Shown here: in pieces, positions 24,823 to 32,000 of the stretch
How the letters are laid out: each line of letters opens with the position of its first letter
Position numbering within the stretch: the first letter of the stretch is position 1
Assembly (NCBI GenBank): GCA_021498095.1
Contig: JAIZWK010000001.1
Coordinates: 1,110,001 to 1,142,000 of the forward strand
Origin: Candidatus Harpocratesius repetitus
Lineage (GTDB): Archaea; Asgardarchaeota; Lokiarchaeia; Sigyniarchaeales; Promethearchaeaceae
Direction: 5' to 3'
Length of the DNA: 32,000 nucleotides
Made by a program: the position numbers and the translations under genes
Notes under the pieces: generated by a model
What the model was told of the DNA's origin: nothing
The model's input: only the letters and a program-made list of their open reading frames with translations
The model's database searches: none

Positions 24823-25353
24823 TTACTGAATATAAGATTCTACTAGATCAATGATCTTCCTATTTCCTGTTTCCTTATTTTTAGCAATGAATTTAACTAA
24901 AACAAATTTTCCTACCGGATCTAAGTAAAGGTATCCATCATCTGATAAAACTAACCAATGGAGATCATTAATTAGACTATTAATTTCTTTAAGGAATTTC
25001 TCAAAAGCTACAGATATTTCATCCCAAAGGGCACGTTCATTCGGTTGTTGTTTATATATATAATAAGAAACTATAAAAAAAACCGCCAATGTTTGTTTAT
25101 TAACTAATGTTAAATTTAAATGCTCGTTTGGTTGATCAAGACCAATAACATATACTTTTTCTGAGTTTTCATTTTTAAAATAATACATCATCATACCTAA
25201 AGCTTTTAGATGAGGCAATCCCTTCTTTAGCAAATTTGGTGTATTTTTTCCAAAAATATTGATTAATTCAGTTTCTAAAACCTTTTTTTTGTTAAAAATA
25301 TACTGGAAAATTTCTTTGATTTGTTCTGATTCTGGTTTTGGCATATTTTTCAT
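24823..25353 (-). CDS. Tandem winged-helix KITE-like protein (Nse1/ScpB-like)
   Basis: 176 aa with two WH-like halves; HWLVLSDDGYLYLDPVG resembles the end of the Nse1 WH-B domain; last gene of the SMC cluster. Confidence 0.6.
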   Translation of the reverse strand: MKNMPKPESEQIKEIFQYIFNKKKVLETELINIFGKNTPNLLKKGLPHLKALGMMMYYFKNENSEKVYVIGLDQPNEHLNLTLVNKQTLAVFFIVSYYIYKQQPNERALWDEISVAFEKFLKEINSLINDLHWLVLSDDGYLYLDPVGKFVLVKFIAKNKETGNRKIIDLVESYIQ

Positions 25354-25393
25354 CCTACATATAATAAATTGAAAAAAAATATATATTATTTTA

Positions 25394-26335
25394 TTATCCT
25401 AAATTCATTAGAATCGGTCGTTTGCTTAAATCTCCCTTTTTAATAAATGGTTGAAGTGCTTTCCATTCATCGTAAGTAATTCCTAAAATTATTGTCGAAC
25501 TATAATTATCTTCTTGGCTTTTTTTTTTGCTATTTGGTTGAATTATTATTTTATACATTCCAGATTCTTCAATTTCATCTTCTGAACTTGGTATAATCTC
25601 AATATAATTATTAGAAACCAAATAACTGATTGCTTGAAGACGCATTAGTGTTTCCATGTAATTTGTTGAAAGAATAAATTTTAATAGTTTTATTTCCTTT
25701 TCTTCCTTCAAAGTCTCAAATATTTCCATTATTTGATCATAAAATTCATTCGCTTCTATATTATTCTCAGTAAATTCTTGTGATTCTGAAAGTGGTACTT
25801 CAATTATATTTTCATCTTTTCTTCTTTTTATTTCAAGAGAATGATAGATTTTCCTAATTACCTCTTTATTCTCCTGAAAATAATTATCAGGTAAAATTAC
25901 AGGATATATTACATGGATGGGAATTGCAATTTTTAAATCATCTTTTTCCTGATTTAATAATGGGATAATAAAATTCTCTTGAAAATTATCGAACTTTTTT
26001 TTATTTTTTAAAAAATTATGTAATTGTTTATTTCTTAATTGCCATCTTGGATCACTTTTCTCTGTAATAATGTTATTCAATTTTTCTTGTTGTTTCGAGT
26101 TAATATCGTTGATAGATTCATATCCTGTTATTCCTCTCTTTAGATCATCTTCATCACCAATAATATTTCGAATTTTTCTTAATATTTGAATCTCTTCATC
26201 AATATTAACATCGAATGGATCAATTTTTCCTACGAAAACTTCATTAGCTTTTTGAATGATGGCTTTATTATGTGAGATTATCTCTCTTTTCCGTTTTTCT
26301 AAATCTTCCTTTAACTCTGACTTGTTACTCATCAT
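25394..26335 (-). CDS. Kleisin (ScpA-like)
   Basis: N-terminal GKIDPFDVNI (archaeal ScpA GEIDPWDIDI-like); C-terminal WH-like IKLLKFIL..ETLMRLQAISYLVSNNYIEI; SMC neighbourhood. Confidence 0.75.
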   Translation of the reverse strand: MMSNKSELKEDLEKRKREIISHNKAIIQKANEVFVGKIDPFDVNIDEEIQILRKIRNIIGDEDDLKRGITGYESINDINSKQQEKLNNIITEKSDPRWQLRNKQLHNFLKNKKKFDNFQENFIIPLLNQEKDDLKIAIPIHVIYPVILPDNYFQENKEVIRKIYHSLEIKRRKDENIIEVPLSESQEFTENNIEANEFYDQIMEIFETLKEEKEIKLLKFILSTNYMETLMRLQAISYLVSNNYIEIIPSSEDEIEESGMYKIIIQPNSKKKSQEDNYSSTIILGITYDEWKALQPFIKKGDLSKRPILMNLG

Positions 26336-26354
26336 TTTTCCCTTGTTAACTCTT

Positions 26355-27323
26355 TTATTTCCCTATTTCTACATCAAATTTATATTTTTTTTTCCAATTT
26401 TTACAAAAATCCTGCAATCTATAGTAGAAATTAAAATCAGGTCCCAGAATATAAGTTTTATTACGAATTGATCCTTCATCTTTTTCTAAGATCTTCATAT
26501 TAACCAAAATGGAGAGTAATTCATTTACTTTTGGTGAAAGAATTTTTGTAAAACGTCTTAAATTCCCTAAGGATTGGTAATTGTCAAGGACCACTTGATT
26601 TACTAGCAGGATCATATTAAAAGTATCTAATTTTGTAAAAAAATTCGACCATATTGCATCGAATTCAATTTCAGTTTTTCGAGATTTCCTCGATAAAACA
26701 CCTTTTTCATATTCATTTATATAAAAAATATATAAACTCCAATAGAAATTTACAATTTTTTCGCCCAAAGAAGTGATTTTATAGGTTTTTGTAATATTAA
26801 ATTTCTTTGCATAATTGTGTTTTTCAAAATAAGTTAAATTATATCTAATTTTTGGCCCTGAACTTAGATATTTATAGTTTTTTTGTAATATTTTGTAATT
26901 TACTGCCTTATTTTCATAAGATAACCTTGATAAAAGCATAATTTTATCCAGATTTCGCAAAAAGATTGTAAAATTGGGTATTTCACCTAAACTCAAATCG
27001 AATTTTTGAAATATTTCTACCATTTTTTTTCCCAAATCAGTTAACCCAAAAATAGAAGGGTCATTAATATCATTTTCTTCAACCAATTCGAGATCAATTA
27101 ATTTATTTATGATTAGCGATTTGATTTTTTCTTCACGATAATGAATATTTTTTACTTTTTTTTTAATCGCAGTGAGATTAGCACCTTCAATTGGATATAA
27201 ATATATCATAACAGAAAAATATGGGTGTCTAACGATTTTTAGTAAATTTAAACAAATGATCATTTCTAGATCGATTTTGTTAAATTTTTTTAATTCATTT
27301 ATCAATACTTTATTTTCCATCAA
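26355..27323 (-). CDS. Protein with three winged-helix repeats
   Basis: Three helix-then-wing endings: LIDLELVE..FGLTDLGKK, FEKHNYAK..YKITSLGEK, LVNMKILE..YILGP. Likely ATG at 27320. Confidence 0.7.
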   Translation of the reverse strand: MMENKVLINELKKFNKIDLEMIICLNLLKIVRHPYFSVMIYLYPIEGANLTAIKKKVKNIHYREEKIKSLIINKLIDLELVEENDINDPSIFGLTDLGKKMVEIFQKFDLSLGEIPNFTIFLRNLDKIMLLSRLSYENKAVNYKILQKNYKYLSSGPKIRYNLTYFEKHNYAKKFNITKTYKITSLGEKIVNFYWSLYIFYINEYEKGVLSRKSRKTEIEFDAIWSNFFTKLDTFNMILLVNQVVLDNYQSLGNLRRFTKILSPKVNELLSILVNMKILEKDEGSIRNKTYILGPDFNFYYRLQDFCKNWKKKYKFDVEIGK

Positions 27324-27388
27324 TTTTTACCCTTTTTCTATTATTTGAGCCAATTTTTGCATATTTATTTTACTAAAATTTAAAAAAA

Positions 27389-30300
27389 TTATGCTATAAC
27401 TGTATTATTTTTAGTTTTCACACAAGTAATATAATTCATTCCTTCGGTCATTTCTTTTAAGGAAATATCTGGAGCAACTAATATAAATTGAGGTGAAATC
27501 TTTCCGGTGAAATCGCTTTCTTTTAATTCCATTGCCCTAGATATCATATTTGGTATTTGAAGTATTAAATTACGTTTACTTACTGGATCTAATCCACGAT
27601 CAAATTCATCAATTGCGGTGATTGGAGTCACACTTTGAGTCTGGAGTGCTAAAACTAAAGCAATAATCCCTGCTTGTTTCTGCCCACTACTATGTTGTGC
27701 AATTGGTCGAGGCTCTTCTAATCCAAATTGAGTGTGAATGATCAATTTAGGAATGTTTGATTCTTCATTGATTTCAATTGTTCCATCTGCTCCAATTGAG
27801 TTTAAAATTTCCTTAAATAATGAGTTCACATGATCAACTTTTTCAGTAACTGTATACGAAATTTTCTCACTCCATTCTTTTCCTTCTTTTTCAAGTGAAT
27901 CAATTGATTTTGTATATTCCTTAATTTTTTCTTGTAAACTTGCAATAAATGCTTTAGATTGTTGGTATAATTCTTCGTCTTCATCAGTAATTTTCATTTT
28001 TTTTATTTCATTACTTAATCGTTGAACTCGATCTTTAAGAATAATTTTTTCAGGAATTTTTTCAGGAATCTTTTGTCCTTTGAATTTTTCTTCCAATATT
28101 TCACGTTCATTATTCAATTTCACAAGGATATTTTGAGTCTGTTTTAAAAAGGCTTCAATTTCATAAATTTCATTTTTGATTTCATTAACTGATTCTTTTT
28201 GGTCGCGAACCTTTTCTTCCCATTCTGCTTTTTCCTTTTCACTTTTTTCAACTTCCTTTTTTAAATCCAGAAATTTGCTTTCAAATTCATGTAGTTTATT
28301 TTCCTGTGTTTCTAATTCTTCAAGAATAGATTCTAATTCTTTTTCTTTTAATTGAGTTGAATTATCTAATTTCTCCAGTTCTTTCTTAATTTGCTCTATT
28401 TGATGATTAAAATTTTTTATTAATCTATTAGGATCTTTTTCATGTTTTGCTTGTTCAACTTTAGTTATTTGATCTTCAAGCTTTCCGATTTGCTTTAATA
28501 TTTCGTCTCTTTTCTGGTGTAAATTTTGGATATTTTTATCAGTTCTTAATGCATTTCTTCGTTGATTGGAGAGACTTTTCAAATCTCTTTCAAGATCTAT
28601 TAATTGTTGTTGGATGTTTTTTATCATACTATTAGTATCTGTTAATTTCTCTCCAATTGAAACAATAAGTTTTGATTGCCCTGGTGATCTTGTCGACCCT
28701 TCTTTACTTCTATAGGAAAATCCGTCTATCGACATAAATTGAAAGCGATATTTCAAAGACATTTCGAGTATGAATTTTGCATTTGTTTCGTCAATTAATA
28801 CATTATCACCACCTGAATGAATTCGGGCGTAATAAATTGCGTTTTGATCACCAACTAATACTTTATGTACGAATTCAACATCTCTACCTGACTCTTTACG
28901 GATGGTATTAATTTTACCATCAGTAATAAATACTCTTTGAGGTAAATTTTGGGGATCTAAGTATCCAATACTAATTCTCCTAAAATCGTTTGTAGATTTT
29001 CTCAATTCGTGAAGTCTATCGAATGAGTCTTTATCTAGTGCAACAAAGTCAAAAAGAATATTGTTTAAAGAAAGAGATGCGGCATCTCGCCATTTTTCAT
29101 GGTGAGGTTGAACGTCTAAAAGTTGATATATAGGACCAATAACTTTTTTGTGCAAATTGGCTTTTTTTATCTGATCTTTAAAAAGTTGTGCAATAAGTAC
29201 TCTTCTGTTCTGTTTTCCGCTCCCTTTTTTATCTCTACTTTGTTCTTCAGCAGAAAGTTCTCTTTTTTTGTTCTCTAAATCGCGTCGGGTCTTTCGCAAG
29301 TGTTTCTCTTTTTTATCAAATTCAATTATAATTTCGTTATTTCTTTTTTTTATTTTATTCTCAATTATTTCTATTTTATTTTCTAATTCTTTTTTTTGAG
29401 AATTTAATTCCGCTAATCGATTATTATATTCAGATAATATATCTTTCTCTTTGGTTGTTCTTTTAATATTGTTAATTTTTAATTTCAATTCTGAAATTTT
29501 AGTTTCTTTAATTTTTTTTTCTTTGCTAAATTTTTGGAGTTCTCGATTTATCTTCGCTTCTTGATTTGATAGTGCTGATTTACTTCCTTTAATCTGATTA
29601 TAGATTTCTGTTCCTTTTTTTAATTTTTTCTTTTTATTTACAAAAATCTCATTAAATTCATTATATTTTACAGAAATTTCTTTTAGTTTTTTCTCTTCTT
29701 TTGATAGATTCTTTTGAAATTCTTTTAATTTTTCCTGGTTTTGATTTAAATCCCTATTATTTTTATTAATTTTCTTTTGGATTTCAATCAAATCTGCATA
29801 TTCTAATAATTTAGAAGTTTTCTTCAATTCTTTTTGTTTTTCTTGCTTTTCTAGCCATTGTCTATGCAAAATTTCCAATTTTGAATTTTCCAATTTTTTT
29901 TGACTAATTTTTTGTTCCAGATCACCTTTTTCTTCTCTTTTTGTTTTAAGGTTTTTTATAATCATTTTATATTTTTCTTCAATTTTCTTTAAACCTAATT
30001 TTCCCATAAAAATGTTATATCTATTTTCAGGTGAGTCGTTAATAAAAGCTAAGAAATCTTCAGCTGGAACAAAAACTAATTCATCATTTGCATCAATTCC
30101 AACATTAGAATATGCTTCAAGAAGATCCTTCACATCTGCTCCAGACAATTTATCGAACTTTCGATTATCTGGATTATAAATATAAAAAGTTGTCCGACCT
30201 GCTGGATGGATTTTTCTTCTTATTTTTACTTCTTCATTCCACAGATATTTCTTATTAAATTTGAGATTTTTTGAATGCAAGATACGTTGTTTCTCATCAA

Positions 30301-30562
30301 TCCCTTGAGGATTTCGCAATGATATTTCAATTGTTGCTTCTTTTTCTTTATTTCTAAGATAATCAGTCAAACGTTCCATTCGAATTGTGCGAGATCTTAA
30401 TCCAAATATTAATCGTAAAGCGTCTAAGAACAAGCTTTTTCCAGATCCATTTTTTCCTGTTAAAACTGTGATTCCATCGGGTAACGAAACTGAAACATTG
30501 TCATATAGTAAGAAATTATCAATTTTTATATTTTTAATTAGTCCTAATGCATTTGTTACCAT
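27389..30562 (-). CDS. SMC-family ATPase, Smc5/6-like
   Basis: Walker A GKNGSGKS, long coiled coils either side of a hinge (VIGPIYQLLDV..WRDAASLSLNNILFDFV), signature HSSGQ, Walker B/D-loop AIDEFDRGLD, QFILVAP. Confidence 0.9.
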   Translation of the reverse strand: MVTNALGLIKNIKIDNFLLYDNVSVSLPDGITVLTGKNGSGKSLFLDALRLIFGLRSRTIRMERLTDYLRNKEKEATIEISLRNPQGIDEKQRILHSKNLKFNKKYLWNEEVKIRRKIHPAGRTTFYIYNPDNRKFDKLSGADVKDLLEAYSNVGIDANDELVFVPAEDFLAFINDSPENRYNIFMGKLGLKKIEEKYKMIIKNLKTKREEKGDLEQKISQKKLENSKLEILHRQWLEKQEKQKELKKTSKLLEYADLIEIQKKINKNNRDLNQNQEKLKEFQKNLSKEEKKLKEISVKYNEFNEIFVNKKKKLKKGTEIYNQIKGSKSALSNQEAKINRELQKFSKEKKIKETKISELKLKINNIKRTTKEKDILSEYNNRLAELNSQKKELENKIEIIENKIKKRNNEIIIEFDKKEKHLRKTRRDLENKKRELSAEEQSRDKKGSGKQNRRVLIAQLFKDQIKKANLHKKVIGPIYQLLDVQPHHEKWRDAASLSLNNILFDFVALDKDSFDRLHELRKSTNDFRRISIGYLDPQNLPQRVFITDGKINTIRKESGRDVEFVHKVLVGDQNAIYYARIHSGGDNVLIDETNAKFILEMSLKYRFQFMSIDGFSYRSKEGSTRSPGQSKLIVSIGEKLTDTNSMIKNIQQQLIDLERDLKSLSNQRRNALRTDKNIQNLHQKRDEILKQIGKLEDQITKVEQAKHEKDPNRLIKNFNHQIEQIKKELEKLDNSTQLKEKELESILEELETQENKLHEFESKFLDLKKEVEKSEKEKAEWEEKVRDQKESVNEIKNEIYEIEAFLKQTQNILVKLNNEREILEEKFKGQKIPEKIPEKIILKDRVQRLSNEIKKMKITDEDEELYQQSKAFIASLQEKIKEYTKSIDSLEKEGKEWSEKISYTVTEKVDHVNSLFKEILNSIGADGTIEINEESNIPKLIIHTQFGLEEPRPIAQHSSGQKQAGIIALVLALQTQSVTPITAIDEFDRGLDPVSKRNLILQIPNMISRAMELKESDFTGKISPQFILVAPDISLKEMTEGMNYITCVKTKNNTVIA

Positions 30563-30641
30563 TTATACTTCCTTCCTGTTTTTTTTTTGATTCTTTTCTT
30601 AATTTATATTTGTTTTTATTTTATTGTTAATAGACAAAAAA

Positions 30642-31625
30642 CTAAGATTCACCTGATAAAACATCGTAATCAGCATTGAAGTTATAATTTTCTTTATTCT
30701 CTGATTCAGAATCGATAGAAGAATCTTCTTTATTATTGATTTTTGAAATTGATTTTATTGCTTCCATTAAAATTTTGAGGGAGAATTCAATTTTTTCATG
30801 TTTATCTTTTCTATTTGCATAACTTCGTAAAACTGCAATTTGAAAGACACGTTCGATATCAGCTCCAGTCATTGAAGTTGATGCCCTAAGTACTCCTGAT
30901 TTATTTTCATCATCATTTAAATTAATATTCACATCAAAATTATCATTTTCACGCAATTTTTGAAGGAAATGTTCGATTAATTGAAAACGCATTTCATCAG
31001 ATGGAGGTGGGAAATCAATTTTAAATGTAAAACGCCTCCACACCGCTTTATCTAGTTGATTTGGATGATTTGTAGCTCCAATAATTCCCAAAGGAAGTTT
31101 TTTTTCTAAAACCAAATCCAATTCTTGTAAAAATGAAATTACCATCCTTTTGATTTCTCCGACATCGCTTTTATTTGCCCGTTCACTTGAAATAGCATCT
31201 ATTTCATCAAAGAAAAGAATAATCGGATTTTTTGTTCGAGCATACATTTCTGCTTGTCGTAAAAGATTTTTTACGCGATTAAGAGATTCTCCTAAAAGTG
31301 AACCAATCAAAGCATTCGAAAAAACAACAATAATTGGGATTTTGTATTCCTTTGCAAATGCTTTTGCTAAAGTGGTTTTTCCTGTTCCAGGAGGCCCAAC
31401 TAGTAATGCAGAAAAAATTATTGGAATAGGGAATTCAATAAAGGTTGAATCTTTTGAATAATCGTTTAACGCCTTAAAAAAAGAATTCAAATAGGTTTTT
31501 TGTTCATCTAAACCTAATAATTCGTCTTTTTTAATTTTAATATCATTTGGCATATATATTTCCCCAAACTGCCCTAAATATTGTTCTATTTTTGCTTTAA
31601 TGCTAGTATAATCTTCTGGTTTCAT
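30642..31625 (-). CDS. Single-domain AAA+ ATPase
   Basis: LVGPPGTGKTT, LFFDEIDAI..R..DVGEIKRMV, IGATNHPNQLDKAVWRRF. Confidence 0.92.
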   Translation of the reverse strand: MKPEDYTSIKAKIEQYLGQFGEIYMPNDIKIKKDELLGLDEQKTYLNSFFKALNDYSKDSTFIEFPIPIIFSALLVGPPGTGKTTLAKAFAKEYKIPIIVVFSNALIGSLLGESLNRVKNLLRQAEMYARTKNPIILFFDEIDAISSERANKSDVGEIKRMVISFLQELDLVLEKKLPLGIIGATNHPNQLDKAVWRRFTFKIDFPPPSDEMRFQLIEHFLQKLRENDNFDVNINLNDDENKSGVLRASTSMTGADIERVFQIAVLRSYANRKDKHEKIEFSLKILMEAIKSISKINNKEDSSIDSESENKENYNFNADYDVLSGES

Positions 31626-32000
31626 TCTGATTTCTCTCTAATGCGTTGTTTCAAAGGATGATTTTAAACAAAAATCGAAAATGGTAAAGAAATAGAGTGT
31701 GATCGAACTCTTGAAATAAAAAATACACCATTTGATAAAAAATTTTCGCTAAGTTTAGAAAGAATGTATGGTATTGTGAGATGTAATAATAATAGACAAC
31801 CTTTTGCTTATAAAATGAAAAAATTTAAGAAGCTGGATAAGATCTCGAATATATTTTCATATTTACTAATTGACCTTAATATTTTTGCAGATTGATAATA
31901 ATATTTTAAAGTTTTTTTCCTAATGTCATCTTTGAAAAAAAAGAAAATTATTAATGAAATTACAAATCGATTTCTTGAGCTAATTTGATAAGTAAATTAT

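Follow-up and report, generated by a model that had tools for sequence, protein, structure and literature searches.

Eukaryotic Smc5/6, the least understood eukaryotic structural maintenance of chromosomes (SMC) complex, and bacterial Wadjet sense extrachromosomal DNA. To our knowledge, the archaeal relatives of SMC5/6 are known from phylogeny alone. SMC5/6-related SMCs have been described in archaea (Yoshinaga & Inagaki 2021, PMC8665677), and SMC5/6-related SMC-kleisin-kite operons have been published for TACK and Asgard archaea (van Hooff, Raas, Tromer & Eme, bioRxiv 10.1101/2024.01.07.573240). Here, we analyzed a stretch of 32,000 nucleotides (nt), called the window, from the Asgard archaeon Candidatus Harpocratesius repetitus (assembly GCA_021498095.1, contig JAIZWK010000001.1, positions 1,110,001 to 1,142,000; G000:C1:1110001-1142000 in our numbering), whose genome is a single contig of 4.36 Mb with 31.0% GC. 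The window contains five co-oriented genes for an AAA+ ATPase, an SMC protein that appears to be of the SMC5/6 type, a multi-winged-helix (WH) protein, a candidate kleisin, and a KITE-like protein. Because the co-oriented run goes on upstream past the window end, with three orphan genes (up1, up2, and up3), the unit comprises at least eight genes plus a convergent gene for a zinc-ribbon protein (ZnR); of this nine-gene system, the downstream two thirds fall within the window. An earlier sequence-only reading of the window took the complete subunit set plus two extra genes to be the novel part, but SMC-kleisin-KITE operons of this kind are already known. New here are the AAA+, up1-3, and ZnR partners that accompany such a set.

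Relation of the locus to described SMC systems

Like the archaeal SMC5/6-related operons, the locus encodes a single ~1000-amino-acid (aa) SMC protein whose best solved match is Smc6, has kleisin and KITE genes downstream, and lies in an Asgard host that also carries canonical SMC loci. The sequence-only reading had raised the question of a canonical smc/scpAB in the host; three further SMC loci were found, each with an ScpB-like gene 3′ of it, two of them canonical (1487 and 1206 aa) and one diverged (1188 aa). A clade of ~1000-aa Asgard SMCs is widespread, with matches in 121 genomes in a search of 400 genomes of the phylum, and its best solved match is Smc6 (159 bits); we regard this clade as the SMC5/6-related SMC already published for archaea (PMC8665677; bioRxiv 10.1101/2024.01.07.573240). 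In a maximum likelihood tree rooted on the two canonical SMC paralogues of the genome, the SMC protein of the window forms a clade with those of loci L020, L017, L019, and L029 (99% support), and this clade is sister to the group holding the ~1000-aa clade (99% in the Shimodaira-Hasegawa-like approximate likelihood ratio test [SH-aLRT]). The tree position and the Smc6 matches place the protein, as far as sequence comparison can tell, with SMC5/6-related archaeal SMCs rather than with canonical Smc, in agreement with the earlier proposal.

The locus also differs from these operons. The SMC belongs to a separate sister clade, and the kleisin and KITE have diverged too far to be matched directly by profile: hhalign comparison of the KITE, WH, and kleisin proteins with the genome's ScpB-like kites and the Asgard X and Y families returned no match. 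The common Asgard operon continues downstream of its SMC gene with X, Y (a KITE), and a Cys-rich protein of ~151 aa, whereas the order here is WH, kleisin, KITE, and the AAA+, the three orphan genes, and ZnR are additions. The third gene of the common operon (L060:12542-12994 and orthologues) has invariant Cys/His residues in the N-terminal half of its product and may encode a zinc finger or RING-like subunit.

Resemblance to the eukaryotic Smc5/6-Nse1-Nse3-Nse4 complex extends over several subunits. The 1057-aa SMC protein comprises an ATP-binding cassette (ABC) head, arms of ~270 aa each, and a hinge-like block at ~470-640; TIGR02169 matches its N and C parts. With the full-length profile searched against all PDB sequences, the matches were human Smc6 (118 bits), yeast Smc6 (87), Pyrococcus Smc heads (64), and Smc5 (52), and the sole match of the hinge, below threshold, was the Schizosaccharomyces pombe Smc6 hinge. 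The C-terminal head carries QFILVAP at the canonical H-loop position, comparable to the QF..TP motif of Smc5/6.

The downstream genes add weaker parallels. The 313-aa gene lies between the SMC and KITE genes and has a homologue in the distant locus L027 (E 3e-36). Its product matches Pfam Nse4_C at residues 215-294 below threshold (E 1.3e-3, 19.3 bits, cut-off 26), and sub-threshold matches were obtained in 2/3 orthologues (E 0.023 in L020 and none in L017); owing to these matches and the operon position, it may be an Nse4-like kleisin. KITE proteins topped both fold searches with the 176-aa protein, Nse1 being the top Foldseek match, and a chain of profiles links it to the KITE family of the Asgard SMC operon (gene Y). 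Although its second domain is poorly modelled, the predicted fold is that of a KITE-like tandem WH protein with no RING. PDB profile searches with the kleisin and KITE alignments gave no match, and in the protein atlas the KITE found only Promethearchaeota clusters, below 0.9. A complex prediction in which the SMC head was entered as two pieces, alongside the KITE and with the kleisin as partner, scored 0.61, and a control with chain 1 replaced scored 0.50; we count this result neither for nor against a complex. In the AlphaFold2 model of the 322-aa protein, which has orthologues in four loci, there are three helix-helix-helix-strand-strand (hairpin) units, of which only the middle one, MarR-like, is confident (overall predicted local distance difference test score, 54). 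The top Foldseek matches of the model, MepR/MarR (E 0.025), are MarR-type regulators and not KITEs, and the gene in the equivalent position in L057 has several Pfam WH matches; the protein possibly consists of three MarR-type winged helices. Thus, the KITE assignment of the sequence-only reading holds, whereas its kleisin has the right position and an Nse4_C match that is sub-threshold only, and its triple-WH protein has the three units but confidence in just one.

The eukaryotic complex is built on an Smc5-Smc6 heterodimer, whereas the single SMC gene here would presumably yield a homodimer. Sequence-family searches found no RING, SUMO ligase, or recognizable Nse5/6 in the cassette (neither RING nor SP-RING matched any of the nine proteins), and the AAA+ partner has no counterpart in eukaryotic Smc5/6. 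The cassette is accordingly not a eukaryotic-type Smc5/6 holocomplex. Nor, by the same kind of search, is it a Wadjet (JetABCD, MksBEFG) system, which shares with it an SMC, a kleisin, a KITE, and extra genes; JetB was one of the proteins that the KITE model matched by fold. The searches revealed neither a Toprim domain (JetD) nor any other nuclease domain in the cassette, and the SMC is not MukB/JetC-like, its PADLOC JetC match (41 bits) covering the P-loop only. More generally, Pfam, NCBIfam, and PADLOC assigned none of the nine genes to a nuclease, protease, or other effector family, although up1-3 are unclassified; this agrees with the earlier remark that the cluster lacks a nuclease. The PADLOC check that had been suggested gave no system-level match.

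The 327-aa protein has a short N-terminal domain and intact motifs (Walker A GPPGTGKT, Walker B DEID, sensor-1 ATNH, and arginine fingers RRF). It matches Pfam AAA (8.9e-30), PADLOC IetA (189.6 bits), and NCBIfam IteA (163.5 bits against a cut-off of 510). The AAA ATPase recognized earlier is a classic-clade AAA+ protein with IetA, at a score far below equivalog level, as its nearest family. IetAS consists of the AAA ATPase IetA and the subtilase IetS and acts as a plasmid-stabilizing toxin-antitoxin and anti-phage system. The core of the AAA+ protein is closest to the IetA models, but with a score below the equivalog cut-off, no IetS or Peptidase_S8 in the cassette, and an archaeal, SMC-linked context, the locus is not an IetAS system. 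The usual partner of IetA is a subtilase. In family f18 (L063:11792-14098 [−] and L069), the gene immediately 5′ of the SMC5/6-related SMC, in the same orientation, encodes a subtilase of 763-769 aa (Peptidase_S8, E 7e-42).

Gene layout and orphan partners

The five genes of the window have the co-orientation and short spacing described previously, with intergenic gaps of 79, 65, 19, and 40 nt from AAA through SMC, WH, and kleisin to KITE, and the cluster is indeed very AT rich (GC of 0.25-0.29). Purine-rich tracts resembling Shine-Dalgarno sequences, reported for the cluster as a whole, precede four of the five starts but not that of the KITE gene. Other assemblies have orthologues of all five open reading frames (ORFs), identically ordered and 22-53% identical, so these are real genes rather than chance ORFs. 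The eight co-oriented genes have 26.8% GC compared to 31.0% for the genome, and the run is bounded upstream by the galactokinase gene (galK). A scan for sigma-70 promoters and terminators gave nothing above chance, under a sigma-70 model that does not apply to archaea. The sequence-only reading regarded the five genes as self-contained; they are instead part of an operon of eight to nine genes whose frame is nearly universal in two families (see below).

No Pfam or PADLOC family matched up1, up2, or up3. Only 20 cluster representatives of up2 are present among 1.84 billion proteins; the protein atlas gave no usable match for up2 and, for up3, chance-level leads only (0.78) to CATCHR/cullin-like helical proteins. 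ZnR consists of a zinc ribbon plus two further, non-ribbon domains; Pfam and PDB searches returned zinc-ribbon matches only, those of the PDB alignment search being zinc-ribbon ribosomal proteins. Homologues of ZnR adjoin the cassette or are embedded in it in L017, L020, L019, L103, G011, and G004, and ZnR accompanies the cassette with a full-length, motif-bearing SMC (the live-SMC form) through four different rearrangements. In GCA_054386615.1, a diverged homologue (E 4e-14) is reversed between the AAA and SMC genes (L019:8798-9802 [−]).

Table 1. Coordinates of the cassette genes and other features (window positions unless a contig or locus is named)
Feature	Coordinates	Strand	Remark
AAA+ ATPase, 327 aa	30642..31625	−	ORF listing
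SMC, 1057 aa	27389..30562	−	ORF listing
Multi-WH protein, 322 aa	26355..27323	−	TTG start, ATG is the next codon
Candidate kleisin, 313 aa	25394..26335	−	ORF listing
KITE-like protein, 176 aa	24823..25353	−	ORF listing
ZnR (zinc-ribbon protein), 325 aa	23482..24459	+	Convergent to cassette
up3, 561 aa	3′ end at 31960..32000, reaching G000:C1:1143645	−	Mostly beyond window
up2, 423 aa	C1:1143669-1144940	Co-oriented with cassette	Outside window
up1, 399 aa	C1:1144937-1146136	Co-oriented with cassette	Outside window
PglX-like methyltransferase	L015:16665-18716 = G000:C1:1148664-1150715	+
Further SMC loci (L023, L024, L025)	G000:C1:569146-575717, 1239149-1243841, 1712182-1716347

Beyond the galactokinase gene, 2.5 kb upstream of the cassette, lies a gene for an N6/N4 DNA methyltransferase of 683 aa (PADLOC PglX-like, 150 bits). 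No tRNA was found at the cassette borders, and no integrase or transposase is present among the window ORFs. The diverged SMC locus at C1:1239149 has a 475-aa gene of no family upstream and genes of 268 and 186 aa downstream.

Conservation in relatives and the order-wide operon

The order up1-up2-up3-AAA-SMC-WH-kleisin-KITE recurs between different flanking genes in three other Promethearchaeota assemblies, so the predicted conservation of the gene arrangement was confirmed. The SMC is 47% identical in the first (L020/L021/L022, the locus in G013), 42% in the second (L017/L018), and 33% in the third (L019), where the contig ends in the WH gene. The distant locus L027 keeps up2, up3, AAA, SMC in two ORFs, a kleisin homologue, and further small genes; the two SMC ORFs are adjacent and encode 506 and 684 aa (L027:4439-8038). 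Orthologues of up1-3 occur in matching order in L020, L017, L019, and L027 (the last with up2 and up3), whereas three divergent genes beside AAA-SMC in G263 have no detectable similarity to up1-3. The live-SMC form is rare, being present in 1 of 40 relatives and represented by 5 proteins in a word-indexed search of 5.8 billion; such a search with the SMC N-terminal head returned only the three orthologues.

The pairing of AAA and SMC is wider. In five deeply separated SMC lineages (that of the window, L027, L057, L029, and family f21), which share only ~25% identity, the SMC gene is immediately preceded by AAA, with an overlap of 29 nt in L057 and of 4 nt in L065. In the ~1000-aa Asgard clade, the upstream genes sampled encode a CARDB-like protein, GalT, a subtilase, and an Ig-like protein, not an AAA.

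In most relatives, a related operon has no ATPase-bearing SMC. The complete genome G011 has homologues of up2, up3, and AAA, in place of our cassette, between ZnR and galK, the two genes that flank the cassette. Hidden Markov model searches with our own profiles recovered the arrangement up1-ZnR-up2-up3-AAA-(232-355 aa)-(~540-aa coiled coil)-KITE-like from seven genomes belonging to two families (G011, G004, G021, G032, G010, G024, and G031). up2 is single copy in 34/41 relatives, and the operon frame, also single copy, is close to universal across two of the order's families. The two forms share homologous up1, up2, up3, IetA-like AAA, ZnR, and terminal KITE-like genes; ZnR stands second in the order-wide operon and is displaced outside our cassette. 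Where our cassette encodes a full-length SMC with Walker A and B motifs, a multi-WH protein, and a candidate kleisin, the relatives have proteins of ~230-355 and ~540 aa.

The terminal gene of the order-wide operon matched our KITE with an hhalign probability of 79% and gene Y of the Asgard SMC operon with a profile-profile probability of 95%. The ~540-aa protein aligned to the C-terminal arm of our SMC with a probability of 92%, a score that coiled coils can inflate; it has no ABC family match, and its C-terminal motifs look degenerate. The ~232-355-aa protein showed no hhalign match to our kleisin, our WH protein, or the Asgard X family. In G011, the KITE-like protein (L100:8910-9650) has a C-terminal tail of ~13 tandem KKKTT repeats that is absent from the G004 orthologue.

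Interpretation of the locus

The likeliest reading, which we hold with about even confidence, is that the locus encodes a lineage-specific genome-maintenance machine composed of an SMC5/6-type ring, DNA-recognition subunits, and an AAA+ remodeller. It is preferred because the frame is single copy, nearly universal in two families, and located between shared flanking genes in G011. Starting from the observed gene content, conservation, SMC affiliation, and KITE fold, we infer how the complex may form, what the AAA+ may act on, and what its cellular role may be. The SMC-kleisin-KITE part would be paralogous to, and diverged from, the SMC5/6-related complex published for Asgard and TACK archaea, with a homodimeric SMC ring that is closed by a KITE-carrying kleisin and may hold or translocate DNA. 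The WH and ZnR proteins are the likely nucleic-acid-recognition parts. The AAA+, presumably a hexameric protein remodeller, could load, reset, or unload the ring or the up1-3 adaptors. A more specific version, in which the classic AAA+ unfoldase with up1-3 and ZnR as adaptors is the dedicated loader, unloader, or reset factor of the ring and the live-SMC form is ancestral to the order-wide operon, seems unlikely.

Several observations weigh against a genome-maintenance machine of this kind. The SMC N-terminal head alone shows no preference for Smc6 in the PDB (Smc, 46 bits; Smc6, 39; Rad50, 35), and with no eukaryotic sequences in the SMC tree, it is PDB scores and the literature that tie the protein to Smc5/6. 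The candidate kleisin falls below every curated threshold. Walker A, Walker B, and the D-loop of the SMC are intact and invariant across four orthologues (32-47% identity), all with intact frames, but its ATPase competence is uncertain because the Q-loop reads PAE, with no Gln, and the signature is SSGQK rather than SGGE. Both deviations are themselves invariant in the four orthologues, which indicates selection. The 335-nt gap between up3 and the AAA gene may mean two transcripts. The live-SMC and coiled-coil forms alternate within genera, and their shared genes are only 23-35% identical (up2, 25%; up3, 23%; and AAA, 35% between our genome and G011), whereas the flanking genes are 58-59% identical (galK, 58%; ZnR, 59%). 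Because the shared genes are far more diverged than the flanking ones, the two forms are old, and their divergence and alternation are as much in keeping with conflict or defence as with a housekeeping role.

The same pattern of two deeply diverged types at one locus in close relatives also speaks for the principal rival, which we consider somewhat improbable: an anti-plasmid or anti-virus system in which the SMC5/6-type ring senses extrachromosomal DNA and the AAA+, up1-3, and ZnR form an effector or regulator arm. The nearest family of the AAA+ is itself a defence and toxin-antitoxin ATPase (PMC13069673), the live-SMC form is patchy, the cassette has a lower GC content than the genome, and a PglX-like methyltransferase is encoded nearby. 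However, the nine genes contain no recognizable effector domain and match no PADLOC system, the borders carry none of the integrase, transposase, or tRNA genes looked for, and a single-copy, syntenic, and nearly universal frame is unusual for defence islands.

It is improbable that the locus consists of two unrelated neighbours, with an SMC-WH-kleisin-KITE operon having landed beside a resident up1-3/AAA operon with no common function. The 335-nt gap would mark the junction of such a pair, the up/AAA frame does occur without an ATPase-bearing SMC in most relatives, and the large ~1000-aa Asgard clade has no AAA neighbour. This view must nevertheless accommodate an AAA gene that adjoins SMC in five lineages and overlaps it in two, the presence of up2 and up3 with AAA-SMC in the distant L027, and an SMC-less frame that still ends in a KITE-like homologue and holds a coiled coil aligning to the SMC C-terminal arm (subject to the coiled-coil caveat given above). 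Least probable is that the SMC paralogue is in decay or impaired as an ATPase, lacks motor activity, and is heading to the shrunken coiled-coil form: the deviant Q-loop and signature and the degenerate-looking motifs of the ~540-aa protein would fit it, but the Walker and D-loop motifs and even the deviant ones are invariant, and all frames are intact.

No SMC complex with a classic AAA+ partner turned up in our literature searches. We know of no domain of life in which an AAA+ loader or unloader of an SMC5/6-type ring has been described, so this would be a new mode of SMC regulation. If the locus instead serves defence, it would amount to SMC-based immunity in an archaeon, with no recognizable nuclease. 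The genome of Candidatus Harpocratesius repetitus keeps an intact AAA+ and four orphan proteins beside a motif-bearing complex that appears to be of the SMC5/6 type, and most relatives keep the frame with a degenerate SMC-like protein. The live and dead SMCs provide an internal comparison for asking whether these genes form one machine, and the locus offers targets amenable to reconstitution from the prokaryotes most closely related to eukaryotes.

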